Positions 1,294 through 63,892 of a stretch of 64,000 bases of DNA are shown one piece after another; position 1 is the first letter of the stretch, and each line of letters begins with the position of its first letter. The DNA is taken from NCBI GenBank assembly GCA_963697165.1, contig CAVOMX010000017.1, positions 24,343-88,342 on the forward strand. Reading direction: 5' to 3'. The notes beneath the pieces were generated by a model. It did not search any database, had not been told where the DNA came from, and saw only the letters and a list, made by a program, of their open reading frames with translations. Position numbers and translations under genes: made by a program. The DNA is from Candidatus Bathyarchaeota archaeon. Lineage in GTDB: Archaea; Thermoproteota; Bathyarchaeia; Bathyarchaeales; Bathyarchaeaceae.

Positions 1294-1295
1294 CG

Positions 1296-1517
1296 TCAGA
1301 AGAAATGATTATTTTTTTGTTTTCCCCATTCAAGCATATTCCAGAATCTTTCATGGAAGTAATATAGTATCATTGTAATAGCATTGTATATCGTTCCAAT
1401 TGCTACGGAAACATCAATGTTTCCTGTCAAAAAGTATGCCGTAATAATGCTAACTGTTATACAGATAATTCTCCAAAGGATTGATTTTACTAATGACCTT
1501 TTTCTTGTTTCTATCAT
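1296..1517 (-). CDS. DUF2061 family small membrane protein
   Basis: ETRKRSLVKSILWR...YYFHERFW signature. Confidence 0.85.
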   Translation of the reverse strand: MIETRKRSLVKSILWRIICITVSIITAYFLTGNIDVSVAIGTIYNAITMILYYFHERFWNMLEWGKQKNNHFF

Positions 1518-1657
1518 GAAATTTATTTTTCGAATACACTCATAATAAGTTTTATCACACCTAATGGCTTTGCTGAGAATCCAAACAAAAATAATTGAGG
1601 ATTGAAGCTATATTTTATAGCTTAGAACGAGTCATATTTTGAAAGGGATATTGAGAA

Positions 1658-2383
1658 ATGAGTTTCATTAATTCTTATCAGGATTTTTTTCGTGCAAAAG
1701 CTTATGCTAAACTTGAGTTTCCTGGAACATATTATTTGGCATATAGAGATTTGCCAGAAATCTTAAGTAAATATGTAAGTGGATTTAAAGCATTAGATTT
1801 TGGTTGTGGAACAGGTCGTTCCACACGATTTCTCCAAAAACTAGGTTTTGAAGCTATCGGTGTTGATATTGCAGAGAAAATGATCAATCAAGCAAAAGAA
1901 ATTGACCCAAATGGGAATTATCGCCTTGTTGAAGAAGATCTTAGTCAGTTTAAAAATAATACATATAATCTGGTCTTATCTGTTTTCACATTTGATAACA
2001 TTCCTACAAAAGAAAAAAAGGTCAATACTTTACAGGAAATTACACGTATTTTAAAAAAAGGAGGCATATTTATAAATTTGGTTTCATCTCCTGAGATTTA
2101 TACTCATGAATGGGCATCGTTTTCAACCAAAGACTTTCCAGAAAACAAACATGCAAAAAGTGGAGATGTTGTCCGAATAATAATTACTGAAATTGATGAT
2201 AAAAGACCCGTTGAAGATGTCCTTTGGTTAGACGAAGACTATAAAGACGTATTTGAGGAATCTAAACTTGAATTGATTGCAACTCATAAACCATTAGCAA
2301 AAGAAACTGAGATATACAATTGGGTTAACGAAAAAATGATTGCTCCTTGGATAATTTATGTACTAAAAGATGGAAATAAATAA
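1658..2383 (+). CDS. Class I SAM-dependent methyltransferase
   Basis: LDFGCGTG motif I, GVDI motif II. Confidence 0.9.
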   Translation: MSFINSYQDFFRAKAYAKLEFPGTYYLAYRDLPEILSKYVSGFKALDFGCGTGRSTRFLQKLGFEAIGVDIAEKMINQAKEIDPNGNYRLVEEDLSQFKNNTYNLVLSVFTFDNIPTKEKKVNTLQEITRILKKGGIFINLVSSPEIYTHEWASFSTKDFPENKHAKSGDVVRIIITEIDDKRPVEDVLWLDEDYKDVFEESKLELIATHKPLAKETEIYNWVNEKMIAPWIIYVLKDGNK

Positions 2384-2649
2384 TTCATGAATTTGAAACC
2401 TGATTTTGGTATACGAAAGGTGATTTGAAGTTTGAATAAGATAGAAGAAATAATAAAAAGACGAAAAATGGCTTATGCGAAATTTTTATCTTAAAAATCA
2501 AAGGTGTATGAAAATTTTCCCCAGTTTGAAGAAGATGAAGTTGTCGAAAAAGGAATACTGACAATTTAGACATAAATCAATGAGGAAGCAATGCGCACGC
2601 AACTGAAAAAAATCCAAAAAAATGCAAAGATCCACATATAATGCGGCTT

Positions 2650-3104
2650 TTAGGGAAGTAGTGCGTAAATCTTTGGAGTAATCAAGGTGTAAACAGTCAT
2701 TAATAGTGTTCCATAGAATGGATCAATCTAGGATAACGCGTCCTTAAATGGAGCCCCTAGAATAAACGCCCAAATACCAAATGCTATTGTTGATAGTATG
2801 GCTTTCATTATTTGTCCGTCGGTGTTGACTTCACTCGCTTTTAATTCTCTTTTATTGGTAGCCAGACTGAATACCAAGGTAGCTACTAATCCCATTGCAA
2901 ACATAACCCAATTGATGTTTTGGTATGGAATTTCCCCCATAACCGATTGTGATGAAATAAATATTGCATTATAAAACGTTACTACTTCAGAAGGAACAAA
3001 TTTCACCAATTGCGAAAGATAGTCGTCCGTTTTTTCTTCGTCCTCTCCCTCTTTCGTTGGATCGATTATTTTTTCTACATCTTTTCAGTTATAATATTTT
3101 TCAT
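2650..3104 (-). pseudogene. Small membrane protein gene disrupted by a frameshift and an in-frame TAG
   Basis: MKNIITE/DVEKIIDPTKEGEDEEKTDDYLSQLVKFVPSEVV...; after TAG at 2728-2730 the frame continues IDPFYGTLLMTVYTLITPKIYALLP to TAA at 2650. Confidence 0.6.
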
Positions 3105-3130
3105 GACCCCTTTGGGATCGAATTCCAAAT

Positions 3131-3160
3131 TGTTTGGGTTTGGGCTTAAAATTTAAGGCT
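3131..3160 (+). repeat. Repeat family A copy (GTTTGGGTTT-NGGCTTAAAWTTTAAGCC)
   Basis: TGTTTGGGTTTGGGCTTAAAATTTAAGGCT. Confidence 0.85.
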
Positions 3161-3209
3161 TTCAAAAAAGAGGGTTTGGTGGATTATTTTCTGGAGATGT
3201 CTTCAGCGG
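3161..3209 (-). repeat. Repeat family D-like copy (GAGAYATCTCC...CCCTTTTTT)
   Basis: Reverse strand reads GCTGAAGACATCTCCAGAAAATAATCCACCAAACCCTCTTTTTTGAA, resembling the island repeats at 57.9-59.7 kb. Confidence 0.5.
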
Positions 3210-3360
3210 TGACCAGGTCCAGACTAATCTAGAGGACTTTTGGTGACCTGGTCATCCATATCACAGATAGCGATTTCAAAGATACTTTAGATCAGTATTC
3301 TCAGTTGTGTAGTTATTTCAAAAAATATTGATATTCGGGTCAATTATTGCTCGTTATTTT

Positions 3361-4092
3361 TTATGTGTTCCCATACTTTTCAAACGATATTATTCCCATA
3401 ATAACAATCATGACGCTTACTGTGGAAATAATTACCAAATCAAAGAAAAAGTTTGTATTCATCCAATTCCCTTCAAAAATCAACTTTAATGCATCGAACA
3501 AATAATGACTTGGTACAAACTTGGCGATCTCCTGAGTTGAACTGCTAAGTGGCATAAAAGTACCAAAAAACATCTGAGGAAGAATAAACAAGAATGAAAG
3601 TCCTACACCCATTTCAGGATTTTTTGATAATGTTGCAGTGATAAGCCCCAGACCAACTGAACTCAAAGCAAATATCCCAGTTACAGGTAACGCCAAAAAT
3701 ATTCCTTCAAAACTACTTTCTGGCCTGAATCCCAATAAATAAGCCAAAACAAGTACTACAATCACTTGCACTATTGCTATGATCATGTTAGATATAATCT
3801 GACTTCCAATAAATTCTGTTGAAGTCATTGGCGTAGTATTAAGCCTTCTCAATAATTTCTTTTCCGAAGAAAAGGATTGAGCAACAGTCATAATCAAAAA
3901 AATTACTGCGTAAACAACCAAACCGGGAACCACAGAATTTATAGTCATTCCCAATTCTGGGTCCGAAAAAGTAAACATAAACACGACCGTTAAAAGAGCT
4001 GGAAATAGAAGATTCATAAATAGATTGACTGGATGACGAACTAACTTCTTTAATTCCACATTGACAAGAGCAGCTAAAGCCTGCAATTTCAT
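3361..4092 (-). CDS. ABC-2 type transporter permease
   Basis: Six hydrophobic segments; LRRLNTTP and FFGTFMP ABC-2 motifs; abuts the ATPase gene. Confidence 0.9.
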   Translation of the reverse strand: MKLQALAALVNVELKKLVRHPVNLFMNLLFPALLTVVFMFTFSDPELGMTINSVVPGLVVYAVIFLIMTVAQSFSSEKKLLRRLNTTPMTSTEFIGSQIISNMIIAIVQVIVVLVLAYLLGFRPESSFEGIFLALPVTGIFALSSVGLGLITATLSKNPEMGVGLSFLFILPQMFFGTFMPLSSSTQEIAKFVPSHYLFDALKLIFEGNWMNTNFFFDLVIISTVSVMIVIMGIISFEKYGNT

Positions 4093-5031
4093 TCATATTC
4101 CCTCCAAGATTCTTCGCCCCGTAATATTCAAAAAGACCTGCTCCAAATTTTTTGCTTTATATCTTTCCATAAGTTCCCTAGGAGTTCCTACTTCAACCAG
4201 TTTTCCATAATCCATGATTCCAACTCGATCACTCAATGCTTCTGCTTCTTCGATATAATGAGTGGTTAAGATAATCGTCTTGTTTTCGCCCTTTAGAGAG
4301 CCAATAAATTCCCATGTATTACGACGAGCTCTTGCATCCATTCCAACTGTGGGTTCATCAAGAAAAGCAATCTTAGGATCGTTAATTAATGCCATCATCA
4401 AATTTAGTTTTCTTAGCATTCCTCCACTATAGCCTCCAGCTTTTCTTTTACTGGCGTCAGTTAATCCTAATAATTTTAGAAATCTATCTGTACGTTCTTC
4501 TATTTCCTTCTTGGATAATGAATGAAGATTCCCAAAAAGTTCAATGTTTTCTCGTGCATTAAGGAATGAAAATACTGCGGCTTCTTGGGGACATACACCA
4601 ATTATTTTTTTCACTTCATCTGGATTCTTTGTCACATCAAAACCAGCAATAAGAGCATTTCCACTTGTAGGTTTAATTATCCCGTTAAGAATATTCACTG
4701 TTGTAGTTTTGCCTGCACCATTGGGTCCTAGAAGACTGAAAAGTTCACCCTCACCAATTACAAGGTTTAAATTATCAACTGCAGTAACATTCTCAAATTT
4801 CTTAACAAGATCCTTTATGACTATTATCGGAGCACCTTTAGATATTTTCTTGGACTTGACTGGTTTTATTTTATTTAACTGAATGTCATCAACTGTAATA
4901 TTTAGAGAAAGGAGCTCCACTATGAGTTCCTTAGACCAGTTGTTGGGAATATTAATCTTCTTCAGAACCGCTATTTGCAAAAGTTCTTCTCGATTCAATC
5001 CTTTGAGTAGATTCTTAATATCTGAAGTCAA
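4093..5031 (-). CDS. ABC transporter ATP-binding protein (drug-exporter type) with N-terminal extension
   Basis: Walker A GPNGAGKTT, signature YSGGM, Walker B FLDEPT, H-loop TTHY. Confidence 0.95.
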   Translation of the reverse strand: MTSDIKNLLKGLNREELLQIAVLKKINIPNNWSKELIVELLSLNITVDDIQLNKIKPVKSKKISKGAPIIVIKDLVKKFENVTAVDNLNLVIGEGELFSLLGPNGAGKTTTVNILNGIIKPTSGNALIAGFDVTKNPDEVKKIIGVCPQEAAVFSFLNARENIELFGNLHSLSKKEIEERTDRFLKLLGLTDASKRKAGGYSGGMLRKLNLMMALINDPKIAFLDEPTVGMDARARRNTWEFIGSLKGENKTIILTTHYIEEAEALSDRVGIMDYGKLVEVGTPRELMERYKAKNLEQVFLNITGRRILEGI

Positions 5032-5087
5032 AAAAATCCCACATATTGGTATGTTTTAACTTCTATTTACATTTAAGACATTTAACG

Positions 5088-5116
5088 CTTGGGTTTGCAG
5101 GTTAAATTTTAACTTG
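5088..5116 (+). repeat. Repeat family A copy
   Basis: CTTGGGTTTGCAGGTTAAATTTTAACTTG; palindromic core. Confidence 0.75.
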
Positions 5117-5208
5117 AAACTTCTTTTGTCGTTTGATTGATATATAATCTGATGTTACTGTTTTCTAGAAAAAAAGAAAAAGGGGAAATTATGGTTTTTG
5201 AAAAACCA

Positions 5209-5799
5209 TCATGGTGCAGGTGGTGTGTATATCGCTTCTGGACACTTTAGCCAGTATCCATACCATGAATTTACTTCGGAAATGTAATTAATCCAACCGT
5301 GTCCAATGTTAAGTGTTTGTCCCTCAAAGTCTCCAGTGCCATGGAAAATTCCGTATGCTTTTGACAGTTGGTCCACGTTATTCAACATAACCAAGCCGTT
5401 GCCTTCAAAGCCTGCATCTGCAACTTCATCGTCATCCAAATCAAACGTAAACACATAGTTGTCTGTAAGAACCACTCTAGCTCCCACCTTTATATTCACG
5501 ACCTTCCTGTAAACAACGGCATATCCTTCAAGAGTTGAATCATCGTCAAATGTAATGGTAATGAAAAAATGTTGTTCCAAAACAACATGGATTATCTGAC
5601 CAGTAACTACAGGTCCTTCGAGTAGAATTCCGTTGCCGCCCCCATCCCCACCATCTGCAGGGTCTGCCCTATCACGAGTCATGTCTACTGTAACTGCCAC
5701 TTTGTTTGGTCCGTTTGTTGGTTTTGCATATGCTGGAATAGCAGAGACAATTAGCAACGCCAACAACATAATGCTGATAAGCATAATTTTCTTTTTCAT
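5209..5799 (-). CDS. Secreted hypothetical protein
   Basis: Likely start MKKKIMLISIMLLALLIVSAIPAYA (signal peptide) preceded by GGCGGTGA SD-like sequence. Confidence 0.75.
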   Translation of the reverse strand: MKKKIMLISIMLLALLIVSAIPAYAKPTNGPNKVAVTVDMTRDRADPADGGDGGGNGILLEGPVVTGQIIHVVLEQHFFITITFDDDSTLEGYAVVYRKVVNIKVGARVVLTDNYVFTFDLDDDEVADAGFEGNGLVMLNNVDQLSKAYGIFHGTGDFEGQTLNIGHGWINYISEVNSWYGYWLKCPEAIYTPPAP

Positions 5800-6109
5800 T
5801 TTTTCACCGCCCCTATGTTCTGTTCCTGAGAAAGATTGACAAAATTGGAGTTTCTGTCCTCTCCCCCAGTGTGCTAATTTAGAAAATAAACTCATCTTAT
5901 GTGACATTTAAAGTTAACTAGATGATAGTTCTAGAAAACTCAATATAAATAACAACTTATGTTACAGGAGAATACGTCCTTTCCTTTTTACTTGTGTGTT
6001 TGGAGTTATGGAGAGGTGTTTTAGTTTCAGTTAACTCTCCACTTTTCCTGAATCCCAATGAACTCAACTAGTATATTCAGATTTTGTGATTGTAGTTTGG
6101 TGTTAAGTG

Positions 6110-6302
6110 TTGGGTTTCAGTGTTGTCTGTCATGGATGCGATGCTTTACTGTTTGAAGGAAGGGACATTGATTCCTCTTTACAAGCTTAGGAATAAGACT
6201 GACGGAAAATGTCCAAACTGCGGAAGGCGTTTGAGTCTCCGTCCCCTAAGCATAAACTTTCATAACAAGGAATTAACCACTTCACCATCAACTGAACCCT
6301 AA
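6110..6302 (+). CDS. Small zinc-ribbon protein (frameshift near 6168), paralog of 59762-59974
   Basis: Joined frames read MGFSVVCHGCDALLFEGRD/LIPLYKLRNKTDGKCPNCGRRLSLRPL. Confidence 0.75.
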
Positions 6303-6418
6303 CACTGCACTCTTTTTTTGCAAAGTTTCCTATGAGCTCTAATATCGTGAGTCGGTACGACTGAAGTACCAACATTCTTTGCAGTAGGTTACAAGGAAAC
6401 AGCAAATATTCGGTATTT

Positions 6419-6865
6419 TTAGCTGAAGAATTCTTTGACTGGAAGGAGTAACCCAACTATCCAGAGTATTACTAATATTATGGAACTGGGAAGGTAGAAT
6501 GCAGTTAAAACATTAGCATTAGTATAGACAAGAATCAATTGTCCCAAAAGAGCAACACCGAAAATGACTAATACCGCATACCAAGCCCATTTTTTTCCCC
6601 GTCTAAAAGGTAACAATGACATAAAGATTAAACTTAAACTAAGACCCAACATATTCACCGCATCAAAATGATATACAAGCGTAATTTTATCCATCAAATT
6701 AGAGTTGAAAGCACGAACTTCTGAAATTGTTAATCCAAACAACTCTTGGAATTCTGAGTCTGATGGAGCTAGGAATAAACTCTGTAAAGCGTATACGATA
6801 CCACCAATAGCAACAATGACCAGCAAAACAGATGCAACATTCAAAACTCTACTAAATTCAATCAC
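6419..6865 (-). CDS. Four-helix membrane protein
   Basis: Hydrophobic ORF with PFRRGKKWAWY motif. Confidence 0.7.
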   Translation of the reverse strand: MIEFSRVLNVASVLLVIVAIGGIVYALQSLFLAPSDSEFQELFGLTISEVRAFNSNLMDKITLVYHFDAVNMLGLSLSLIFMSLLPFRRGKKWAWYAVLVIFGVALLGQLILVYTNANVLTAFYLPSSIILVILWIVGLLLPVKEFFS

Positions 6866-6986
6866 CCCCTTTTAATTGAATATGAGCAGTAGTTCATTTC
6901 TTTTGTTTCTGCCTTTAAGACTTGTGTACCAACTTTGCCTGTGTAATAATTTACAGAAAGAATCTCTCAACTGCTTGAATCTATGA

Positions 6987-7058
6987 GTATATCCTTTTTG
7001 TGTGATGGATATACGAATTTTATTGGTATATCCTTTTAGTCGAAAGGGTATACGAATT
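6987..7058. promoter_or_regulatory. Tandem pair of 33-bp palindromic operator-like units
   Basis: GTATATCC-N12-GGATATACGAATT at 6987-7019 and GTATATCC-N12-GGGTATACGAATT at 7026-7058. Confidence 0.5.
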
Positions 7059-7166
7059 CCCTAATTCCTTATTGTATTCTTATTATATTGATTTGATACT
7101 GTTTTTACAGACCAAATTCTTACTGAATCATGCCTGATTCCTATCCATTTTCATTTTTCTGGTGCA

Positions 7167-7209
7167 AATGCCCTTGTCTCGTCAAATCAAATAATGTGAC
7201 AAGGGCATT
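7167..7209. repeat. Perfect 12-bp inverted repeat
   Basis: AATGCCCTTGTC ... GACAAGGGCATT. Confidence 0.7.
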
Positions 7210-7250
7210 CAACCCATTTCTTGGATGATAAAACAGGCGTGATTTTTTTT

Positions 7251-7276
7251 GCTTAAAATTTAACCCCCACACAAAA
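7251..7276 (-). repeat. Repeat family A copy (reverse orientation)
   Basis: Reverse strand TTTTGTGTGGGGGTTAAATTTTAAGC. Confidence 0.65.
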
Positions 7277-7350
7277 TGCATAAACAAAGAAAAGAGGTAG
7301 AATATGTGATGTGGAAAAAAGAGAGAAAGGTTTTGGTATGAATTTTTTTG

Positions 7351-8307
7351 TTATGTCTTTTTTGTTCGATAACGTTTGAATCCTACATATCCTATTAGGG
7401 TAACAAACATGCTAAGGGTAGCCATTATTGTGCCTAGTGGAAGCTCTGGAACAACGAAAATGGGACATGGCATTGTACACTCGTTATTTGCTTCGTCGAT
7501 TTCAACTATTTCAGCTGACGAGTCTGCCCAAGCCTTTATGTTGTATACGTTCAATGCAATTCCTGTGGTGTTCCAGGTAAAGGTTACGATTCTAGATTCT
7601 CCTGGAGCCAAGGATTCTACATTTATGGTGCCAATTTCTATGCTGTCGTAGTAGCAGCTAAGGTCAAAAGACTCGGTGTAATTGCCATTATTTCGAACAG
7701 TGACATCAATATCAACCAAGTCCCCTGGCAGCGCCTCATTATCACAAACAGTTTGGGAAACTGCTTCAACATCATGCACCCATTCTGGATCTTCGGTGAA
7801 TGTGGCGGTTACAGTCTTGTTGCTATCCATAAGGAGGAACTCAGGATTAGCAGAGCCACTGAGATCACCGCTCCAACCACTGAACGTCCAACCAGCAGCT
7901 GGAGTAGCCGTTAACTGTACAATTGATCCAGCAGCATAAGGTGAACTGCCATTGACGGCAACAGATCCGCTTCCAACAATATTCACCGTCAAACAATACT
8001 CTGGAATCTCTGTGAAGGTGGCGGTTACAGTCTTGTTGCTATCCATAAGGAGGAACTCAGGATTAGCAGAGCCACTGAGATCACCGCTCCAACCACTGAA
8101 CGTCCAACCAGCAGCTGGAGTAGCCGTTAACTGTACAACTGATCCAGCAGCATAAGGTGAACTGCCATTGACGGCAACAGATCCGCTTCCAACAATATTC
8201 ACCGACAAACTATACTCAGGACTCTGAGCAAACACAAAGTTTGATATTCCTAAAGGTACTGTTGTAACTAACAGAAAAGCAATTAAAAAGAAAGCAGATT
8301 TCTTCAA
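7351..8307 (-). CDS. Cell-surface protein: signal peptide, two InlB B-repeat-like domains, CARDB domain, PEF-CTERM-like anchor
   Basis: Duplicated YxLxVNIVGSGSV...ATPAAGWTFSGWSGD...TVTATF; CARDB-like VTVRNNG...EIDEANN; C-terminal VVPELPLG + TM helix + KRYRTKK. Confidence 0.85.
   Translation of the reverse strand: MKKSAFFLIAFLLVTTVPLGISNFVFAQSPEYSLSVNIVGSGSVAVNGSSPYAAGSVVQLTATPAAGWTFSGWSGDLSGSANPEFLLMDSNKTVTATFTEIPEYCLTVNIVGSGSVAVNGSSPYAAGSIVQLTATPAAGWTFSGWSGDLSGSANPEFLLMDSNKTVTATFTEDPEWVHDVEAVSQTVCDNEALPGDLVDIDVTVRNNGNYTESFDLSCYYDSIEIGTINVESLAPGESRIVTFTWNTTGIALNVYNIKAWADSSAEIVEIDEANNECTMPCPIFVVPELPLGTIMATLSMFVTLIGYVGFKRYRTKKT
7796..8221. repeat. Near-perfect intragenic tandem duplication, period 216 bp
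   Basis: 7796-8005 vs 8012-8221 differ at only a few positions. Confidence 0.95.
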
Positions 8308-8430
8308 GGAGTCTCCCCTTACAAGTTATAGGTGTGTGTATAAATAAAAGCTTAATTGGTATAATTCTCTAGAAAAACTAGACTGATTTTCTATATATCA
8401 ATTTATGATTGAAAACCATAAAAGCAAAAA

Positions 8431-8460
8431 TGTTTGGGTTTAGGCTTAAATTTTAAGCCC
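8431..8460 (+). repeat. Repeat family A copy
   Basis: TGTTTGGGTTTAGGCTTAAATTTTAAGCCC. Confidence 0.85.
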
Positions 8461-8546
8461 ATCCTTAAGCAACAATATGGGCTACAGCAGTTTATGTCAT
8501 GGTACAACATTAGTTTCTTAAAGGACTAAAATACAATACAATTGAT

Positions 8547-9014
8547 ATGGCAACTTTAGTTAGAGAACAGATTCTTTCCCAAATCATGAAGTGGGTGGTT
8601 AATTCGGGATTAGACGTTGAATCAATTTCTAACGAGAAACATGATTTTGCGATAACTATGTACGAGAATAGGAACCTGCCACAACTGCAAATAATTCACC
8701 CAAAAGCAGATACCGCATACGTTCTGGTTGTAGGTCTAGTTAGCATCCCTGAAAGTGACCGCAAAAAACTGAAGGAATTAAAACGTGAACAGTTTGATGA
8801 ATTAATTTGGGATAACAAAATGAGATTACTAACAATGGATGTTGATTTTACAGTATGGGGTTCTGAGCAGGATCCGGATTCTTGGGAAGTTCAAAAGCGT
8901 GTCTTCTTAGACGAAACTAACACAAACCACTTTCATGAAGCATGTCATAAAGTCAAGAACGCAATTATAAGCATTATCTGGTCATACAAACGAGAATTAG
9001 CAACAACCGCATAG
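8547..9014 (+). CDS. DUF2299-like archaeal hypothetical protein
   Basis: 155 aa; resembles archaeal DUF2299 proteins (IHPK...FDELIWD...LL). Confidence 0.55.
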   Translation: MATLVREQILSQIMKWVVNSGLDVESISNEKHDFAITMYENRNLPQLQIIHPKADTAYVLVVGLVSIPESDRKKLKELKREQFDELIWDNKMRLLTMDVDFTVWGSEQDPDSWEVQKRVFLDETNTNHFHEACHKVKNAIISIIWSYKRELATTA

Positions 9015-9035
9015 TCTACCTAAAAACCAGACATA

Positions 9036-10097
9036 TCATCCAAGTTGCTCTGTCCAATCGTTATCTTGGTTTAGCAAATCAACAATTATTGTTAGAAGAA
9101 GTTTCCATATTTCAGAATGGTGTGCCAAGGTTGGGGATTGATGCTTAACTTGAGCCCAGTTGGAAAGAAATCGTTTGCGTTCTTCATCAAAATGCGCTTT
9201 CCGGGTTTTGTAGACTTCTTTCGCAGGTTGAGGTATCAGAACATGGTATTGAGGCAGAAGATTAATGATACCTATTTTTTTGCCTACTAATTTCCCTCTC
9301 TGTGTCCAATTGTCAACAAATTGGAATCGTTCAGGCTTCAATAAGGTAAGTCGGGCTAGTTCCAAGCTGAGTCTGAAAGCAATATTCAGATTCACCAATG
9401 CATCGCTACATTTGGCTGGAGGCTTTGTAAGCGCTAACAAGTATACTGCGGCGGGGTAACCCGATAGTTTTGGTTTTAAAAAATTGTTTTTTACCGAAAA
9501 AATCAGTCCATCTTTGATGGATGTTTTGAAGGCTTCCGATTGGATATGTGCCTTAACGCTTTCCGTGTCATCAGTAGATATTTCTGGTTTCATACTTGGC
9601 AACATCAGTTCTAGAATGTCAGCAAAGAGGTAGATACAACTGGAAAAGTCTCTGTGGAAAAACCCCCACGAATGATTAAACCAAGATTCGATACCACTTT
9701 TTTTGATTTTGAGAAGCATGTTAACTGTTTCTAAGTAATTTTTTTGGGTATCATTCATTGTTTCTGATTGGTTTATGTGTTTCAAGAGAGCTTCGTCGCT
9801 TACGAGGGCAACTGTTTTTTCGGCTTCGTTGTTATTGCTCCATTTATCTTGTATGTAATGAAGAGCATTTCCAAGTTCACCGTAGCAATAATCATCATTT
9901 TCAAGAAACAGAGCTCTCGCGTTGTCAAGGTTATACAGGATTTTTCCATCTTTCCCAGTTGCGTGAGGAAAATCCGCATGAGAATCTGGACCCAAAGAGC
10001 CGGAAACCAGTGACTGGGTGTCTGCTGGGGATAGGTCTAGTTCGGCTGCAATTTTTTCTGCCATAATTCTGTGATTAATCGGAAGCAAATAAACCAT
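9036..10097 (-). CDS. Protein with N-terminal zinc-dependent phospholipase C/P1-nuclease-like domain
   Basis: N-terminal H, GSLGPD, FPH, GNALHYIQD metal-ligand pattern. Confidence 0.55.
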   Translation of the reverse strand: MVYLLPINHRIMAEKIAAELDLSPADTQSLVSGSLGPDSHADFPHATGKDGKILYNLDNARALFLENDDYCYGELGNALHYIQDKWSNNNEAEKTVALVSDEALLKHINQSETMNDTQKNYLETVNMLLKIKKSGIESWFNHSWGFFHRDFSSCIYLFADILELMLPSMKPEISTDDTESVKAHIQSEAFKTSIKDGLIFSVKNNFLKPKLSGYPAAVYLLALTKPPAKCSDALVNLNIAFRLSLELARLTLLKPERFQFVDNWTQRGKLVGKKIGIINLLPQYHVLIPQPAKEVYKTRKAHFDEERKRFLSNWAQVKHQSPTLAHHSEIWKLLLTIIVDLLNQDNDWTEQLG

Positions 10098-10112
10098 CCT
10101 GAATTGGCGATT

Positions 10113-10679
10113 CTATTGTTCTTCTTTTTTTTCTGGAAATTTTGGCATTCGGTTCATCCAACGGGTTAACTCGTTGAACATTTCCGTAAACAAAGGCTCC
10201 TCACTTACAAGCAACAATGTATATTGTGCCAGTGTCTTGTCATCTAGTTCGTCAGTTAGTTTTGGCAAGTTAAAATTATATTTTTCAACTATTTTAGGAC
10301 CGACATCAAATTCTGTGTCAGAAAAGAACGGCAAAATCTCTTTTTCTTTTTTCTTAAATTGACCATAAATATCGTTTCGAATATCACAAACCATGGTCTT
10401 CATTGTTTCGTTGACTTTTGGTATTTGCTGCTCAAATTCCTTTTTTATTTCTTCTCCGGATTCTTCTCCTACTAGTGCATTTGCTATTCCTGTAGCCATT
10501 GTGCTTGTTGATTGTACCATTATTTCTCCAAAAGCATCCATCATTGCGCTCATAATTATCACGCTTGTATTTACGACAGTGTTCATGATTTTTGTTTCCC
10601 TAGTTGGCACACTTTGGGAATTACCATTTTCATTTTCACTAGAATGTTTCGCTGTGTTAGAACGCTTTTCACCTGTCAT
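10113..10679 (-). CDS. Hypothetical protein
   Basis: Long ORF; likely start MTGEKRS after GAAGTGA. Confidence 0.65.
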   Translation of the reverse strand: MTGEKRSNTAKHSSENENGNSQSVPTRETKIMNTVVNTSVIIMSAMMDAFGEIMVQSTSTMATGIANALVGEESGEEIKKEFEQQIPKVNETMKTMVCDIRNDIYGQFKKKEKEILPFFSDTEFDVGPKIVEKYNFNLPKLTDELDDKTLAQYTLLLVSEEPLFTEMFNELTRWMNRMPKFPEKKEEQ

Positions 10680-10746
10680 AAAAATCACTTCAAAAAGATT
10701 GCTCTGATATTCTAATAACACTTGTGCGAACAACGGTTTGGGCTGG

Positions 10747-10774
10747 GTTGGGTTTTTGGTTAAAATTTAACCTC
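10747..10774 (+). repeat. Repeat family A copy
   Basis: GTTGGGTTTTTGGTTAAAATTTAACCTC. Confidence 0.75.
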
Positions 10775-10952
10775 TAACTCTGTTCTTTAGTTGATGCTAT
10801 CTTTGTCACGAATTGGATTCTTGTTTCTCTGCAGATTTGTTAGTTTGTTTCTTCCTATTTTTTTGATGCACATTATATTTCTAAATTAGCTTAATGTCTA
10901 TATTGTGGAATATTATCTCCAGAACGGGCATCCAAAATAATTAGTTGATGTA

Positions 10953-11504
10953 TCATGTTTGTTTCCCATAGAATAATCTCATTATTTGTGCTCTAAAAAC
11001 CCAATACCCAATGTCATAGCGTTTAACTCTACTAAAGATAGCTAAAAAGTAACCCAGAATAGAGAATATGTTTCTAAAATCGTGAATCACTCTTTCAAAA
11101 ACGTGAATGGGTTCATAACCAAGTTTGTATATTTCTTTTCCACGATTGTAATAATATCTATAAGAATTATGTTGACCGCTTTTCCTTATTAATTTTGGTG
11201 GACAAACCCATCCTTTCACAGAACAGTCTTGGTGTAGGAATTTTAACCAAACGTAGCTATCTTCAGAACCGACTTCAGCGAATTTACCGTTAAACACCTT
11301 TAGAAATGGAGAAACCTTAAGAAGCATCGCATATCCTGATCCACCTAAATAGTCCGTGTTTGCTTTTTGGTTTTTTTCTATAAACCGAGGCGGAAGTATT
11401 GTGTCCGCATCAACTCTTAAGATGTAATCATATTCATGCAAATTGACTTGATTTAATGCGATATTGAGGGCTGTTGCTATTCTTTTTCCTAAGTAATCAT
11501 TCAT
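10953..11504 (-). CDS. Glycosyltransferase family 2-like protein, probably N-terminally truncated
   Basis: ALNIAL...YDYILRVDADT (DxD), GSED motif. Confidence 0.7.
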   Translation of the reverse strand: MNDYLGKRIATALNIALNQVNLHEYDYILRVDADTILPPRFIEKNQKANTDYLGGSGYAMLLKVSPFLKVFNGKFAEVGSEDSYVWLKFLHQDCSVKGWVCPPKLIRKSGQHNSYRYYYNRGKEIYKLGYEPIHVFERVIHDFRNIFSILGYFLAIFSRVKRYDIGYWVFRAQIMRLFYGKQT

Positions 11505-11606
11505 GTTTGGTCTAACGTAAATAATTTCAATTGTGTTTGAACTTTGAGGGAATTATTGGTTACAAATCTAGCTACTGCTTTTTTTATAAAAAATTTGTGT
11601 GTATAA

Positions 11607-14011: not shown

Positions 14012-14056
14012 GGTTTGAATAAAATAGTCAATATCTGAATTATTGGCTTTATCAAG

Positions 14057-17855: not shown

Positions 17856-18244
17856 CTTTATTTAATATTTTATCTAATTTCAATTTAACACTTTTCCGTA
17901 ATTATTAACATCGAGTCAAAAGTAGCAATCTTTCACAGTGATGAGAAAAAGGCTGTTTTTATTCGGCTTCAAACTACTGGGATTCATAACGATATGGGTC
18001 CGTCGCTTGCAAGAAGGATTTCTGAGGAAATAAAATAGAAACTGGGTTTTCAAATAGCATAAAAGTGATGATTATTCCTATTTTTACATATAGTTTATAG
18101 AAAAAATGGTCTGATCATCTAATCCAGCTGCCACAAATGCGCGCACATGTGTGGTTTCTATATTACTGAGTAAGATAAATTGGTTGGGGAATTAAAAGTT
18201 AATTAAGAAAATCAACTTAAAAGACGATTGAAGAGGGAAACAGC

Positions 18245-30684: not shown

Positions 30685-30699
30685 GAGAAAAAAGATGGT

Positions 30700-57854: not shown

Positions 57855-57880
57855 AGTGTTTAGAATGAGTGTATTCTAAA
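57855..57880 (+). repeat. Putative attL: 18-bp core within the TTTAGAAT-N6-ATTCTAAA dyad
   Basis: Direct repeat with 63875-63892. Confidence 0.8.
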
Positions 57881-57885
57881 TAGAC

Positions 57886-57963
57886 TGGTGACGTCTCCAC
57901 TTTTTACTCGCAACTTCCCCCTTTTTTGACAAGAATATCTCCCACAAAAATCCCCCTTTTTTT
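57886..57963 (+). repeat. Repeat family D copies (one full, one partial)
   Basis: TGGTGACGTCTCCA...GCAACTTCCCCCTTTTTT then AATATCTCCCACAAAAATCCCCCTTTTTTT. Confidence 0.65.
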
Positions 57964-58024
57964 AAATTTAGAATTGCACTTACATAAGAAGGGTAAATAT
58001 TTGTTTAACTAACCAACAAAGGGT

Positions 58025-58227
58025 GGCAAGGTATTACGGTTTGCGTGCGTCTAGACCGTAAGACAGCATAAGGTTCGGTGCTGAGAAGGTAACACGCCCC
58101 CTCTCGGTTTCAGTTAGCACGTCGCTAGCCGCAGTGTTTCTGTGTCAGTTAGCCAAAGCCAACCGTTTCTGTTGCAAACATAGCCGCCAACTATACTTCC
58201 GTAACCGTATGCCATTTGTCCCTTGCC
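58025..58227. ncRNA. Candidate structured non-coding element
   Basis: GC-richer than flanks; terminal GGCAAGG/CCTTGCC pairing and internal stems; no family recognised. Confidence 0.3.
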
Positions 58228-58390
58228 GTAACAATATCATCATTATTTTCTTGTTTATAGGATTTGTTGAACAATAAATTAACAGAAACATCTAATAAAT
58301 TAGCAAAAATCCCCTTTTTTCAGATTCTTCTGCAAATGCTCAGGAGTTAGGCATATTAACTTGATGTCACAATATTATTATGGGGGAGCT

Positions 58391-58585
58391 ATGGTGAAAT
58401 GTATTTTTAGTTCTGAAATCGATTGCCCATCATATGAAGCTCAAAAAGAGTTAGGATATGAACCCAACCCCAAAGAAATTCAGGAGAAAGCTTGTCCTCA
58501 GTGTCCAAACGGACCTAACAGTTTTAAAAAAAATAGAGTATACATTCGCCAAAATGTGCCATCCCGTGGTAACTACATATTCTAG
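58391..58585 (+). CDS. Small Cys-rich protein
   Basis: MVKCIF...DCP...ACPQCP; GGGGAG upstream. Confidence 0.55.
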   Translation: MVKCIFSSEIDCPSYEAQKELGYEPNPKEIQEKACPQCPNGPNSFKKNRVYIRQNVPSRGNYIF

Positions 58586-58647
58586 AATTGCATATTAGCT
58601 CAAGAATCATATTAAAGGGGGATACATTCGCTGAAATGTTCCCCCTA

Positions 58648-58679
58648 GTGGAGACATCTTCCGTAATTCCCCTTTTTTT
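58648..58679 (+). repeat. Repeat family D copy
   Basis: GTGGAGACATCTTCCGTAATTCCCCTTTTTTT. Confidence 0.65.
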
Positions 58680-58796
58680 AAAAAAAGAGATAATCGTTTG
58701 GTAGAAACGCCATAAATTATTAGCTTTGACTTTTTGCGCGCGCGCATTACACGAAACATGTTCAGTCTTCAGTGAAAGAATGATAATGCAAATGAA

Positions 58797-58863
58797 GGAA
58801 ATGGCTGTTCATTCCATGATGGTGATATCACCACTGTGTTTTTGCAAAAACCCCCCCTTTTTT
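58797..58863 (+). repeat. Repeat family D long copy
   Basis: GGAAATGGCTGTTCATTCCATGATGGTGATATCACCACTGTGTTTTTGCAAAAACCCCCCCTTTTTT. Confidence 0.85.
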
Positions 58864-58922
58864 GAGATATTATAGTTTAATCCTGAATCTTAGTCACTCA
58901 AAGTTTCTTAAAAAACTCTTTT

Positions 58923-59621
58923 ATGAATAGTTTCTTAATGATATATCGGGGAACAGTTTTGAAGAAAGCACTAGTTATAATCGGCGTTTGCTTGATTTTT
59001 CTTGGATCATTTTCAAGTGGTTACATTTTGGGACTTGGCCCATTCTTTATTTGGGAAACGGAAATTTATCGAGTCCCTATGTCACTTTTTAGTGATTATA
59101 AGATTATTCGTTACGATTCCTTTGAAGCTAAATCATTCAATTTGGAAACTGGGGAAGAGCTGATAATAAGTTTTGAAGTTACAAATTACACTAAATTGGA
59201 AGATGATATTATTGATATCACCGAAAATAGTGGTAATGTTATTGACTTCTTTGTTCTTGATAAAGAAAACTTCATAAAATGGAAAAATGGAGAAGAAACA
59301 ATAAACCATTTTTATGCACATAGATTGACTTCGGTAAGTCCTAATATCACCATTCCATACGAAAATAACTGGACTTTTGTTCTGGATAACACATTTACCA
59401 ACACAGAGACAAAGGAATTACTTATTGATGTAGATATTATTACTATTCTCCCCTTTCACGGAGATATTGTTGACCGATTTCCTACATTCGTTTTTTTTTC
59501 AGTGATAATAATTTTTTTTGGAATATTACTGGTGGTATTTGGTCTACTGAAAAAGAATTGTAGCAACTCTAAAAGTTATGATTTACAAAAAGAAACCACT
59601 ACAAGTGAAAAACTGATTTAG
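58923..59621 (+). CDS. Membrane protein with extracellular beta-sandwich (GOLD-like) domain
   Basis: N- and C-terminal TM helices; IDFFVLDKENF and WTFVLDN motifs. Confidence 0.65.
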   Translation: MNSFLMIYRGTVLKKALVIIGVCLIFLGSFSSGYILGLGPFFIWETEIYRVPMSLFSDYKIIRYDSFEAKSFNLETGEELIISFEVTNYTKLEDDIIDITENSGNVIDFFVLDKENFIKWKNGEETINHFYAHRLTSVSPNITIPYENNWTFVLDNTFTNTETKELLIDVDIITILPFHGDIVDRFPTFVFFSVIIIFFGILLVVFGLLKKNCSNSKSYDLQKETTTSEKLI

Positions 59622-59627
59622 TTCTAT

Positions 59628-59696
59628 GGAAATGGCTGTTCGTTCCATTGTGGAGATATCTCCCACTTGTTTTCTTGCAGAAACTACCCTTTTTTT
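59628..59696 (+). repeat. Repeat family D long copy
   Basis: GGAAATGGCTGTTCGTTCCATTGTGGAGATATCTCCCACTTGTTTTCTTGCAGAAACTACCCTTTTTTT. Confidence 0.85.
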
Positions 59697-59761
59697 AGTG
59701 TTCTTTGTTTTCATGTTCAATTACTTTCTTTATATCATATCTTTCAAACATGCAGTTCCAG

Positions 59762-59974
59762 CTACAAATCCAAGGACCATTTAGAGTTTTTCTGTAAACC
59801 AACTTCTGTATCATCGGTTTTTTCATAAGTAATCTTCAATGGTTCAATCGAAAGTTTTCTATTACAGGACGGACATTTTCCCTCAGTTCTTTTTCGTAGC
59901 CTATAGATTGGAATCATGTCTCTTCCTTCATAGAGTATTTTTCTACATTCATGACAAACTAACCTCAAAGCCAT
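59762..59974 (-). CDS. Small zinc-ribbon protein
   Basis: CHEC...CPSC. Confidence 0.8.
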   Translation of the reverse strand: MALRLVCHECRKILYEGRDMIPIYRLRKRTEGKCPSCNRKLSIEPLKITYEKTDDTEVGLQKNSKWSLDL

Positions 59975-60193
59975 TTACTATACACCAATTTCTAAAACTA
60001 CATATCTAAATTTAGAACTTGAGTCCAAAAGAAAAGTTACATCCCAGAGAGCAAACCGATACTAAACTTTTCGACTTGTGTTTTGAGTATATTACAGAAA
60101 TGGAAGGAATCAAACTCTTCCGAAAGAGGAAATGGCCTTTCCTACCGTCTTCTTTTTTAACGCCTGCCCCGTTACTTTTAGATGGGAATAATT

Positions 60194-60959
60194 TTGAATG
60201 CAAAATATCAAGTCTATAAAGACATTGGAGGAAAATACAGATTTCGGCTTCGAGCAGCCAATAATAAGATTCTTGTGGTAAGTGAAGGATACCAAACTAA
60301 AGCGGGATGCCTAAACGGTGTGACATCTGTTACAAAAAAATTGTCAATCTAAAATAGAAGATAAAACTATTGAATGCCAAAAACTGTCTAACCCAAAGTA
60401 TGAACTTTTTGTAGATGCCAGTTTAAAGTTCAGATTTAATTTGATTGCAGCTAATGGTCAAATAATTGCTTCTAGTGAGGGTTACAACAGCAAACAAGGA
60501 TGCATACGAGGAATTGATGCAGTCAAGAATAGTTGTGAAAATGCTGTCGAAGATTTAACAACCAATAAAACTGTTGATAAAAAAGTTGAGAACCATGCTA
60601 TGGGGATTGTAGATACAGGCATAGCGATGCTCTCCCCACCCAATGTTGTAGATTCAGATTCGACAGTGACTTTTGAAGGGTGGCTTATGCATAGCAAGAC
60701 AGGGAGAGGCATAGAAAATGCTACAATCAACATTTGGGAAAGTGACAGGTCGTTCATGAGTGATGCATTGCTAACATCTGGAGTAACAGCCAAGGACGGC
60801 AGCTTCAACATAAATTGGACGGCAAAACCGCAGGATTGGTGGGATGACACCGTAGAACTTTATGCAAAATTCAAAGGAACAGAAAAACACAAACCAGTAA
60901 GAAGCGCAAATTATCAAATAAAAGTTCTAAGGCATACAAAACAAAAAGTTGGAAGTTAA
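60194..60959 (+). CDS. Tandem DUF1508 (YegP-like) protein with C-terminal beta domain, frameshift near 60332
   Basis: KYQVYKDIGGKYRFRLRAANNKILVVSEGY and KYELFVDASLKFRFNLIAANGQIIASSEGY. Confidence 0.85.
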
Positions 60960-60960
60960 G

Positions 60961-60991
60961 CTTAGGCTAAATTTTAACCCCAAACCCAAAC
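60961..60991 (-). repeat. Repeat family A copy (reverse orientation)
   Basis: Reverse strand GTTTGGGTTTGGGGTTAAAATTTAGCCTAAG. Confidence 0.85.
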
Positions 60992-61044
60992 TAAGACACC
61001 AATCTTAAATGTTAAGAAAGTGAATAAAAGATAGGGGATTTTGT

Positions 61045-61473
61045 ATGTCATTGGAAGCGAATAAGACGATAGTTCGTAGGATGATTGAAGCCTATAACCA
61101 GCATAACTTGGACTGGTTTGACGAGTTTATCGCACCAGATTATTTTGACCACTCTAATCAAGTCGGTTCAGATGGGGTAAAACAATTATTTATCATGGGT
61201 TTCAAAGGATTCCCTGATTGGCATGAAGCTATTGACGATATCATTGCTGAAGGAGATAAGGTATGGCTTCATCTTACTTATACAGGGACACATACTGGTG
61301 AATTTTTTGGACTACCCCCTACGGGAAATAAGGTTACCATGAAGGCTGTTGCCATCTATCGCATCGCTAATGGCAAACTTGTAGAAGGATGGTTCATCAA
61401 TGACGGACTGGATATGTTCAAACAGATAGGGGCTATCGAATTTACAGAAAAAGGAAAGAAAATCTTTCCATGA
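61045..61473 (+). CDS. SnoaL-like ester cyclase family protein
   Basis: NKTIVRR, FPD, IAEGDKV, GTHTGEFFGLPPTG. Confidence 0.92.
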   Translation: MSLEANKTIVRRMIEAYNQHNLDWFDEFIAPDYFDHSNQVGSDGVKQLFIMGFKGFPDWHEAIDDIIAEGDKVWLHLTYTGTHTGEFFGLPPTGNKVTMKAVAIYRIANGKLVEGWFINDGLDMFKQIGAIEFTEKGKKIFP

Positions 61474-61562
61474 AGTGTCAAATAATCTCGAGCTTGGGCA
61501 AAAAAAGGGTAATGTTGTAATAACTTTCGACTATAATAAAAAAATCTAATGTTGTGTTGTCA

Positions 61563-62034
61563 ATGAAGTCTCTATTGGTTGTGTTTTCATATCATCATAA
61601 TAATACTGAAAAAATAGCTAATGTCTTCGCAAAAGTTCTTGATGCACCAGATAAAAACGCCACAACAAATAAACCCTGAAGAGCTTCAAGAGTATGACTT
61701 GGTAGGTTTTGGTGCAGGGATAGATAGTGGAAAACATTACAAGGTTATGCTTGACCTTGCTGACAAACTGCCGCAAGTAGACAACAAGAACGCATTCATT
61801 TTTTCAACCGCTGCATTAACCGACGAAAAAAAAACGAGGCAAAGACCACTCAACACTTAAAGAAAAATTGGAATCTAAGGGTTATAGGATTGTTGATGAA
61901 TTTCAATGTAAAGGTTTTAACACTAATAGTTTTATGAGGTTTTTGGGGGAATGAACAGAGGCAGACCTAATTCTAAAGACCTCAAAAATGCAGAAGAGTT
62001 TGTTCAGAACCTAAAGCAGAACCTACAAACGTAA
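61563..62034 (+). CDS. Flavodoxin family protein, frameshifted
   Basis: SYHHNNTEKIA, YDLVGFGAGI, FIFST, EFQCKG, GRPN. Confidence 0.85.
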
Positions 62035-62250
62035 AATCTTGAAAAAATAACATTTTAAGGATAATCATTCACTAAAGATGAAAATAGTTTGAACGAGGTT
62101 TGATGTAAAATTTTAATCAATTGATTAAATCAAATCTCCCGCAACTCCCCCTTTTTAATACTTGAATGATTTTCGGGTATTACTTTTCCTTATTTGAAGA
62201 AAAAAGTAAAAAGATTGTTGCTGATAAAAAGTAATGGAGTCAAACACATC

Positions 62251-62811
62251 GTGAATGAGATACTTGTCATAGGTTCTATAGCTCACGAAGAAGCAGATAT
62301 TATTGAATGGACACAACCTTTTGGTGCTCTAGAAAAATACAACTCCCTCATTATTGAACTAACTTCATTTCCAAAAGATTATCCACGAACTCTCTTCAAA
62401 AACATAGCCATACTCAAAAGAACCTCGCGTGTTTTCATTCGAGACAAAAAAGAAATCTTCTGCATCATGGAAAAACCCTTCAAAATCTTATTCAAACATA
62501 TTCCCCTAAACTACTCATGGATACCTTTTCCAGAAAAACTAACAGTCAACCCAATGCTTCTTGGAAAGACAATACATAACAAGAATGAAAGATTCGAAAA
62601 ATACATCAAAAACGTCGAAAAATGGGATAATGAACTATTCTGGGAAACCACAGAAAATTGCAGGTTTGAATCTATTGCCGTTAACAAATCTCAAAACTCG
62701 ATAGCCGCTACAATAACTATAGGGAATAGAGGACAAATTCATTTCTTGCCAAAAATATCTTCTTCTAAGGCTATAGAACTTTTGATTGATTTGATTAACA
62801 AAAACAGTTGA
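62251..62811 (+). CDS. Hypothetical protein
   Basis: Uninterrupted ORF; start between 62194 and 62251. Confidence 0.6.
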   Translation: MNEILVIGSIAHEEADIIEWTQPFGALEKYNSLIIELTSFPKDYPRTLFKNIAILKRTSRVFIRDKKEIFCIMEKPFKILFKHIPLNYSWIPFPEKLTVNPMLLGKTIHNKNERFEKYIKNVEKWDNELFWETTENCRFESIAVNKSQNSIAATITIGNRGQIHFLPKISSSKAIELLIDLINKNS

Positions 62812-62874
62812 TTGGAAACAGAAACTAAAAATGGCGGAAAAAAATCCCATTTTTTAGCTAATCTTTGGTTCTAA

Positions 62875-63123
62875 TTATTCTTTTGAATCTCTAAATCTTC
62901 TTTTTTTTGAAGATTTGGTTCGCATCAGAACTGCGATCGAATGAGAACATTTTTTTCTTCATAAAAACCCGAGACAATTACAACTTACTTTTCTATCGTA
63001 ATTCTGAACAACAATATATGTCCCATGGTCTCCAACAACATTGAATTTTCCTCCACCTAAAGACTCGACTCGACCACTATTAAGTAAATTCTCAGCTTTC
63101 TGAACTAACCTTTCATTGGGCAT
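62875..63123 (-). pseudogene. SWIM zinc-finger protein with an in-frame TGA (missing from the ORF track)
   Basis: MPNERLVQKAENLLNSGRV...GDHGTYIV...SCNCLGFL*RKKCSHSIAV. Confidence 0.75.
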
Positions 63124-63272
63124 TCAAACAACCATTCTTTAAAGTTGTAAATAACAGCAAATAAAAACGTGTTCGGTTTAGTAATATGTTAACACTGGTT
63201 TCTGAATTTTTTGGTATCAGATTTTTCTTCTGGAAAGATGTCTTCGATTTCATAATATTCTTCTCTCATTAA

Positions 63273-63851
63273 ATTATATCTATCAATGATAATGGAAAAA
63301 AGGCAGTTACAAGCCTTCAACTCTTGAAAGAAATAGGTATGCGAAGCGGGGAAACATGGAATCTTGAATGGACACATATAGACATCGAAAACCTCACAGT
63401 TAATTATACACCGGAAAAACATGGCAATCCACGACAGTTTAACGTATATGGAACACTCATGGTGATGCTTAACACTTTACCAAAGACAGGAACAAAAGTT
63501 TTCGGAAACACAAGTTTGATAGCTCATAGAAACAACTTTACACCTCAAAGAAAAAGAATATCCCAAAAATTACATAATCCACGAATCCTCAAAATCAGTT
63601 TTCACACGATAAGACATTGGAAGGCAACAACAGAATACCATAAGACCAAAAATATTCTACACGTTAAAGAGATGCTTTGGCATAGAAGGATCAGTAGCAC
63701 ATTACTTTACAAACACCTCATTAACTTTGAAATCAAAGACTATCATGTGAAAACAGCCAAAACATTAAAAGAAGCATGCGACTTGGCTAAGGTAGGTTTC
63801 AGCTACTTCACCACTATAGAAGGTATACAAATCTTCAGGAAACAAAAATGA
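63273..63851 (+). pseudogene. Tyrosine integrase, N-terminally truncated
   Basis: GMRSGE, EKHG, HTIRH, LWH, TLLY; in-frame stop at 63270-63272 just upstream. Confidence 0.85.
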
Positions 63852-63874
63852 AAAACTATACGAAATTGGGCAGA

Positions 63875-63892
63875 AGTGTTTAGAATGAGTGT
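63875..63892 (+). repeat. Putative attR, overlapping the ATG of the target gene
   Basis: AGTGTTTAGAATGAGTGT. Confidence 0.8.

Follow-up and report, generated by a model that had tools for sequence, protein, structure and literature searches.

A palindromic repeat between accessory gene modules of a Bathyarchaeia genome and its probable origin in casposon-like Cas1 transposons

Background

Casposons of families 1-4, as set out in the available parts of five papers (PMC4046053, PMC5137440, PMC8464041, PMC4779613, PMC10359463), use Cas1 as their sole integrase, have terminal inverted repeats (TIRs) as their boundaries and enter sequence-specific targets, which are duplicated over 13-15 bp (13 bp in N. 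koreensis). The same texts describe solo TIRs, the repeated tandem use of a single target and excision that is precise and leaves one target site. The 'family 5' casposases (Salgado et al. 2022, PMC9755687) are Cas1-solo proteins of ~345 aa that have no helix-turn-helix (HTH) extension at the C terminus, occur mostly without the family-B polymerase PolB and are accompanied by TIRs in some contigs; the available text of that paper describes no target sequence, duplication length, Bathyarchaeia, dispersed sites or gene modules, and that of PMC6563490 no PolB-less mini-elements. Here we analyse a stretch of 64,000 nucleotides from a Candidatus Bathyarchaeota archaeon (assembly GCA_963697165.1, contig CAVOMX010000017.1, positions 24,343 to 88,342), hereafter the window, in which a ~30-bp palindromic motif separates unrelated accessory genes. 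The motif very probably originates as a casposon target, seen as a 13-bp duplication, together with the tip of a TIR, and the Bathyarchaeia elements concerned are casposon-like, with Cas1, TIRs, a 13-bp duplication, tandem re-use of the target and solo TIRs.

The genome of the window (1.99 Mb, 81% complete) is labelled G000, its relatives in the genus G003, G006 and so on, and the fetched loci carry L-numbers. The original prediction, drawn from the letters of the window alone, had read the motif as the recombination site of an archaeal gene-cassette system, analogous to integron attC or pdif sites and served by tyrosine recombinases.

Results

A dispersed motif confined to the gaps between genes

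Six copies of the motif lie in the window, centred at 3151 (+), 5107 (+), 7258 (-), 8451 (+), 10765 (+) and 60972 (-), and all six are intergenic, as had been noticed at the outset. The dyad pattern, with up to 2 mismatches, matched the window 5 times against 0.07 expected, a count of at least 5 being reached in 0 of 100 shuffles, and the copy at 5107 was recovered by the profile only. The motif is therefore real, while the consensus first given for it was idealised, since the dyad is exact in one of the six copies and GTTTGGGTTT in three. Its reported absence from the core region also held, with no site scoring 14 or more between 11 and 60 kb; two further weak copies, overlooked at first, are found at 18197 (score 13.6) and 62111 (score 12.4).

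The profile scans that had been proposed gave 95 sites in G000 with a first, iterated profile and 92 with a refined one, whose consensus reads TTTGGGTTTGGG-GTTAAAWTTTAAC-CC, that is, an arm followed by the 13-bp core GTTAAAWTTTAAC. Raw profile matches at threshold, in which neighbouring offsets are counted separately, numbered 185 in G000, and two block-shuffled genomes gave 3 each. With up to 2 mismatches the motif was present in 22 of the 24 other genomes of the genus and in 0 of 16 genomes from other families, and across the class it was found in 49 of 301 genomes, high copy number being confined to this genus. An exact scan of the genome-contig collection returned 119 stretches, and among the 80 listed, 65 were labelled Bathyarchaeia or Bathyarchaeota. 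A viral origin was rejected on the basis of 0 exact matches in viral contigs.

None of the 92 sites in G000 falls within a called gene (our own simple caller, genes of at least 100 aa), compared with 69% of random positions, and the sites cluster in regions of lower GC (0.38 vs 0.41). Spacing between sites ranges from 187 bp to tens of kb, and direct orientation dominates among neighbours (RR 16, LL 8, RL 4, LR 4). The arms of 69 one-armed sites are oriented evenly relative to gene 3' and 5' ends (19/18/17/15), on which grounds a promoter or terminator was rejected; the earlier view that the motif is neither in any simple form is borne out, as it keeps no fixed orientation or distance to gene ends. 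One might still suppose that a transcription or chromatin protein binds the motif, or that it is a terminator, as a mark of foreign DNA, and the strictly intergenic position, the conserved dyad and the lower GC would suit such a role. This explanation is scarcely credible, given the lack of fixed placement just described, the lack of folding beyond shuffles in six 91-nt stretches (z -1.2 to +1.6), the exactness of the breakpoints and above all the duplication around elements, both presented below, the last of which largely refutes it. A search of Rfam with window 1-12000 gave 0 matches.

Cas1 elements duplicate the core and carry the arm

In 32 fetched stretches we found 29 near-full-length Cas1-solo genes, 16 of which lie between inverted repeats of 22-287 bp that delimit elements of 3.9-12.3 kb. 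A direct repeat of at least 13 bp is present at the tips of all 16, with 13 as the minimum (in L241 the register is uncertain by one base); five elements had pointed to a duplication of 15 bp, which gave way to 13 bp once 16 were compared. The duplicated 13-mer is identical to the core of the motif in 8 elements, differs at 1-2 positions in 5 and at three or more in 3. In the genus of the window the exact TTAAAWTTTAA core is duplicated in 6 of 6 elements, and variant 13-mers are duplicated directly at both ends of L242, L285, L293, L294, L295 and L297. The other half of the motif is accounted for by the elements as well: the arm, GTTTGGGTTTGGG, is the TIR tip of one element subfamily, whose TIRs start with CCCAAACCCAAAC, and arm and tip coincide in 6 of the 16 elements. 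Since the arm is a TIR tip and the core is the duplication, the ~30-bp motif is a TIR tip plus a duplication, and the end of the element rebuilds the target. Five of the 6 arm-tip elements had entered arm-less targets, and among those with other tips (CT-rich, A-run) 5 of 10 had entered armed sites; L237 is of the arm-tip type and L240 of the CT-tip type. The TIRs of L237, L238, L240, L244 and L295 are low-complexity, telomere-like tracts (CCCAAA, CT, CA and CAGT repeats) of strong strand asymmetry.

The Cas1 proteins of the elements match TIGR00287 and PF01867, and the catalytic residues E164, H229 and D241 are invariant in nine aligned sequences; eight of these are 338-346 aa long and stop directly behind the Cas1 domain, and the ninth has 384 aa. 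Their nearest solved relatives are the CRISPR Cas1 structures 4n06 and 7cr6, and 6opm; our Cas1 tree, with its weak backbone and no reference casposases, cannot assign them to a family. No other Cas family was found among the scanned ORFs of the elements (24 against NCBIfam and 30 against Pfam, not all small ORFs being included). With the PolB of L239 as tblastn query, 28 of the 29 Cas1 genes, those of all 16 delimited elements among them, had no PolB detected nearby; tblastn could overlook a protein-primed PolB of great divergence, and most elements, at 4-6 kb, have no ORF long enough for one (ORF maps of 9 genus loci). The single Cas1 gene next to PolB has neither TIR nor motif. In this locus (L239, G006:C6:43000-62999; 9361-12325) a Cas1 of the same family is followed directly by the family-B polymerase and preceded by a GmrSD nuclease, with no TIR or motif within the fetched 20 kb. 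Elements bounded by TIRs and devoid of Cas1 also occur elsewhere (L058:481-2888, 2.4 kb; L320:5505-12551, 7 kb) and are candidate non-autonomous derivatives. The Cas1 family, often fragmentary, is present in 20 of 25 genus genomes and in 139 of 301 class genomes, a count that includes distant, probably CRISPR-type Cas1; across the 25 genus genomes the motif count correlates with cas1 matches at a Spearman coefficient of 0.55, against 0.31 for integrase matches.

The motif marks the breakpoints of gene order

The elements often sit in a pre-existing armed site, and flanks change partners at the 13-mer. Taking homologous genes of G000 and the fetched loci in pairs (55-99% identity), we asked whether their neighbours were homologous too. 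At junctions without the motif this was so in 175 of 395 cases, and in 23 of 102 where both gaps had at least 100 bp; it was so in 0 of 133 cases where one genome has the motif at the junction and in 0 of 29 where both have it, 0 of 162 in total. These comparisons are not independent of each other, as loci overlap and the genomes are kin, and Fisher values computed from them are therefore inflated. The proposal that the motif delimits exchangeable modules thus passed the synteny-breakpoint check, and gene order across the copies is far from invariant among relatives.

At the DNA level, pairs of loci with a flank in common have nothing in common on the opposite side, in 24 of 24 pairs and, with more loci, in 31 of 31 (one of the 31 pairing both ends of the same element). 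In 15 of these 31 pairs the centre base is different although their flanks are 78-99% identical, and this together with the one-sided sharing implies that the core does not travel with the flank. A crossover at the central base, which the flank pairs had suggested, is unsupported by the 13-bp duplications and by the inheritance of half-core variants, in which the half next to the shared flank (5/22) hardly stands out from the far half (3/19). The public read sets consisted of 17 runs, all contigs, with a best share of 0.29, and in eight of them, which are of low depth, no joint was seen at any site. Loose ends of single contigs at 7268 and 8441 are weak but fit the model.

Traces of Cas1 elements in the window and in its genome

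The window is linked to the Cas1 elements by the stretch 6984-7251, which abuts site 3 (described below) and can be aligned, in register, to either TIR of L241, the 12.3-kb Cas1 element of G006:C17; the same solo TIR stands beside a core in G003, G006, G015 and G019. G000 further contains three cas1 remnants, all broken, each at a distance of 0.9-1.2 kb from a core with a TIR-like tract after it, a spacing equal to that in intact elements, with the reservation that ~10% of G000 is as close to a site as these remnants are and that one of the adjacent cores scores below the site threshold.

A number of observations weigh against the model in which the sites stem from Cas1 elements and Cas1 makes the junctions between modules. 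There is no cas1 in the window and no intact cas1 in G000 (at its 81% completeness), nor was any TIR-bounded element found in that genome, where homology to TIRs beyond the tip is kept on only 5 of 184 flanks; 74 of these flanks are of the arm type, 13 belong to other classes and 97 are unclassified. Neighbouring sites of G000 share an identical 13-mer in 1 of 52 pairs, with 2.1 expected (in the other loci the figure is 40 of 173, with 24 expected). Among the Cas1 genes themselves 13 of 29 have no detected TIR, and 3 of the 16 duplications are those that depart from the core at three or more positions. The counts of cas1 and integrase matches correlate with each other (0.58), and the genomes, being kin, are not independent; 15 motif matches without any cas1 match were counted in G008, and cas1 fragments without any motif match in G004. 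In 37 metagenome loci with two-armed sites, of whose larger ORFs 116 of 126 were scanned, Cas1 was found in 4 loci and tyrosine integrases in 5, and in four loci the core lies 30-60 bp behind the stop codon of an integrase.

From the rarity of shared 13-mers it follows that the arrays of G000 are not simple fresh tandem insertions, and from the few long TIRs and the lack of a TIR-bounded element that the window modules are not intact non-autonomous elements. These same three facts, namely no intact cas1, 13-mers shared no more than by chance and scarce long TIRs, would be expected if casposons had only seeded the sites and host recombination or repair re-joined modules at the repeated palindromes without Cas1. 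We regard this as unlikely: the homology common to the sites amounts to only 13-26 bp, which is short for RadA-type recombination, the junctions fall at the edge of the 13-mer just as they do at the ends of intact elements, and the abundance of the motif tracks cas1 matches.

Tyrosine recombinases and other repeat systems

The original prediction amounts to a crossover site at which a tyrosine recombinase acts in trans on cassettes, in the manner of pdif or integrons, with AAAWTTT as a 7-bp overlap. Its attractions are the dyad symmetry, the coincidence of breakpoints with the motif, the predominance of direct orientation and the integrase genes near some sites. Two tyrosine recombinases had been announced as candidate enzymes, yet a Pfam search of 61 window ORFs revealed only one, an N-terminally truncated ORF (63324-63851) in an integrase island that has a 14-bp repeat of its own, and it is around Cas1 elements that the whole 13-mer is duplicated. 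PF00589 has 10 matches in G000 and is present in 36 of 41 relatives, including motif-free families; among the 30 top integrase loci only 1 lies within ~1.5 kb of a site, and no conserved single-copy recombinase or ortholog group emerged among the integrases compared. No XerA-type recombinase exceeded the NF040815 cut-off in G000, as far as the assembly reaches, and half-core variants on the flank side are not inherited more often than those of the far half. A tyrosine recombinase was accordingly rejected as the enzyme, on the grounds of its rarity near sites, its presence in motif-free families and the missing ortholog group, and the crossover-site reading as a whole is very unlikely. The integrases of G000 share a C-terminal tail ending in ...FRKRK.

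What survives of the cassette proposal is a junction of the recombination type; the analogy with attC or pdif does not, because the anatomy fits neither. In pdif modules a short dyad lies between accessory modules. The XerA-dif system resembles the present one in the same way, whereas archaeal dif, in the available text of PMC8371274, has an 11-6-11 bp layout, as opposed to a one-base centre and a 13-bp duplication here. Integron arrays and CALINs, including archaeal ones, as described in the available text of PMC9668308, are alike in that unrelated modules of 1-3 genes lie between copies of a repeated site, mostly in direct orientation, with an enzyme possibly provided in trans; attC, in contrast, reads RYYYAAC ... 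GTTRRRY around a long imperfect hairpin, in an R''-L''-L'-R' layout, while here GTT precedes AAC inside one 13-mer. Differently from attC, the six copies form no extended stem beyond shuffles, and differently from integrons, whose cassette genes share one orientation and whose integrase IntI has an extra domain, genes occur evenly in both orientations, no IntI was recognised and the site is duplicated around Cas1 elements. In CRISPR arrays Cas1 inserts DNA at a palindromic repeat and duplicates the repeat, and the arrays have regular spacing, short spacers, cas2 and effector genes. Here inserts of 0.2 to many kb lie between degenerate, dispersed repeats of irregular spacing, and a scan of neighbours brought up no further cas gene.

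Sites and modules of the window

Site 1 (3132..3157, +) has an arm of the TIR-tip type at 3132-3144 and its core at 3145-3157. It is abutted by a copy (3160..3253, -) of a second repeat, motif B, that matches G000 contigs C11 and C22. Motif B consists of a tRNA 3' fragment, a short dyad and a C/T-run end, and has 39 copies in G000 under a strict filter, at least 9 of which form a tandem array next to tRNA-Pro with cargo genes in between (G000:C10:2300-26300). In the window it occurs within 57880-62160 and at 3160-3253, and 7 of 92 sites of the first motif abut a motif-B end; apart from 1 weak distant match, no such ends were seen near 13 Cas1 genes, the majority of which belong to elements whose own ends had not been delimited.

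Module 1, an ABC-2 permease with its ATPase (3361..5031, -), has a homolog in G019 with the motif on both sides and different neighbours, the homology stopping at site 2 (5088..5113, +; degenerate arm, core 5101-5113), which forms a shared-flank pair with that genome. Module 2 (5209..6865, strand mixed or unspecified) contains a secreted hypothetical protein, a small Cys-rich ORF (6120-6302, +) that in G006 and G019 also lies next to the motif, and a membrane hypothetical. The solo TIR of ~270 bp (6984..7251, -), homologous in register to both TIRs of L241, then leads into site 3 (7252..7276, -), where the core (7252-7264) is flanked by the solo TIR to the left and by a degenerate arm to the right. 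Module 3 is a surface protein (7351..8307, -) with two InlB B-repeat-like domains and CARDB, towards which the arms face from both sides; the InlB B-repeat-like domains are encoded by two near-identical tandem repeats of ~213 bp at 7796-8229. Site 4 (8432..8457, +) consists of an arm and a core at 8445-8457, and the contig of one relative matches its left flank up to 8441 and continues with a different 13-mer and flank. Module 4 (8547..10733, strand unspecified), a DUF2299 gene with two hypotheticals, is followed by site 5 (10746..10771, +; arm, core 10759-10771). A probable weak site (18178..18203, +; score 13.6) stands at the right edge of the stretch 1555-18156, which is missing at the corresponding position in G003. 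For a 353-aa module gene no relative was found in the genome-contig collection.

Site 6 (60966..60991, -) has its core at 60966-60978 and a perfect arm, and its arm-side flank, a SnoaL gene, is joined to a different neighbour in L104. At the weak site 62105..62145 (+; score 12.4) there follow a tip resembling the inverted-repeat end of the Cas1-less L320 and a motif-B end. The surrounding integrase island (57859..63892, +) is separate and no part of the motif system, with its own 14-bp direct repeat (57859-57872, 63879-63892) and the integrase remnant at 63324-63851. It is decayed, and its left 14-bp copy makes up one half of a dyad that has a 6-bp spacer, dif-like anatomy and no second copy in the genome. 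Genes that appear split into short ORFs (FdhD-like, ABC ATPase, DUF1508, flavodoxin-like) occur at 30412-31750, 41995-44583, 60180-60959 and 61560-62030, through either decay or sequencing frameshifts.

Discussion

The elements share with casposon families 1-4, as these are portrayed in the texts available, a Cas1-solo integrase with its catalytic residues (in the relatives, G000 having only remnants), TIRs and a 13-bp duplication in 16 of 16 cases. Families 1-4 encode PolB and occupy between one and three loci in each genome (tRNA, ef-2, intergenic), whereas here PolB is missing from all 16 delimited elements and ~90 sites are dispersed; unlike theirs, the target is a near-perfect palindrome that the tip of the element helps to rebuild. 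The resemblance to 'family 5' lies in PolB near just 1 of 29 Cas1 genes and in proteins that end after the Cas1 domain with no C-terminal HTH, and Cas1_938, Cas1_1200 and Cas1_1269 of that family, in the material available from PMC9755687, have the same N- and C-terminal signatures as the Bathyarchaeia proteins, as judged by eye. PolB-poor 'family 5' casposases and solo TIRs have been published, and a literature search, with subscription papers outside its scope, returned no paper on this target or on Bathyarchaeia casposons.

Taken as a whole, the motif is probably the target plus the tip of polymerase-less, casposon-like Cas1 transposons, with Cas1 making the junctions between modules. It is likely that Cas1 re-uses these junctions to insert, delete and re-join DNA, thereby stacking and reshuffling accessory genes and dividing accessory regions into modules, and the positions of the junctions suggest that the modules of the window, too, may have been moved in this way. 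It can be envisioned that a casposase dimer or tetramer would make staggered cuts 13 bp apart around the AT-rich palindrome, to which the 3' ends of the TIRs would be joined. Each insertion would leave a new junction of core plus tip, itself a preferred target, such that elements would pile up. Later events driven by Cas1, such as excision between any two cores, one-ended insertion or adjacent deletion, could then remove cas1 and most of the TIR and leave one-armed sites with unrelated cargo between them. As the enzyme survives in G000 only as broken remnants, the array of the window is probably inactive, unless a cas1 gene lies in the unassembled part or arrives in trans.

A bolder idea, which we put forward tentatively and hold to be rather doubtful, is that of an active Cas1 gene-cassette system, where the bare 13-bp TIR tip and the 13-bp palindrome would suffice for a casposase acting in trans, and modules would be excised as circles and re-inserted at any site. 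In the available accounts, the M. mazei casposon excises precisely and leaves one target, with a circular intermediate proposed (PMC10359463), and the N. koreensis casposase tolerates substrates other than TIRs (PMC8464041), which by analogy makes exchange at bare sites plausible. If true, the system would amount to a 'Cas1 integron', or to a CRISPR array whose spacers have the size of genes, and to a living intermediate between casposons and CRISPR adaptation.

More generally, a genome-wide, lineage-specific signal of rearrangement is here tied to a Cas1 integrase whose target is short, palindromic and defined, and the proposal that casposon targets and ends gave rise to CRISPR repeats can thereby be put to a direct test. 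The findings also point to a compact site-specific integrase of ~345 aa that has a 13-bp target and moves elements of 4-12 kb, and they suggest how an abundant sediment archaeon assembles its accessory genome.

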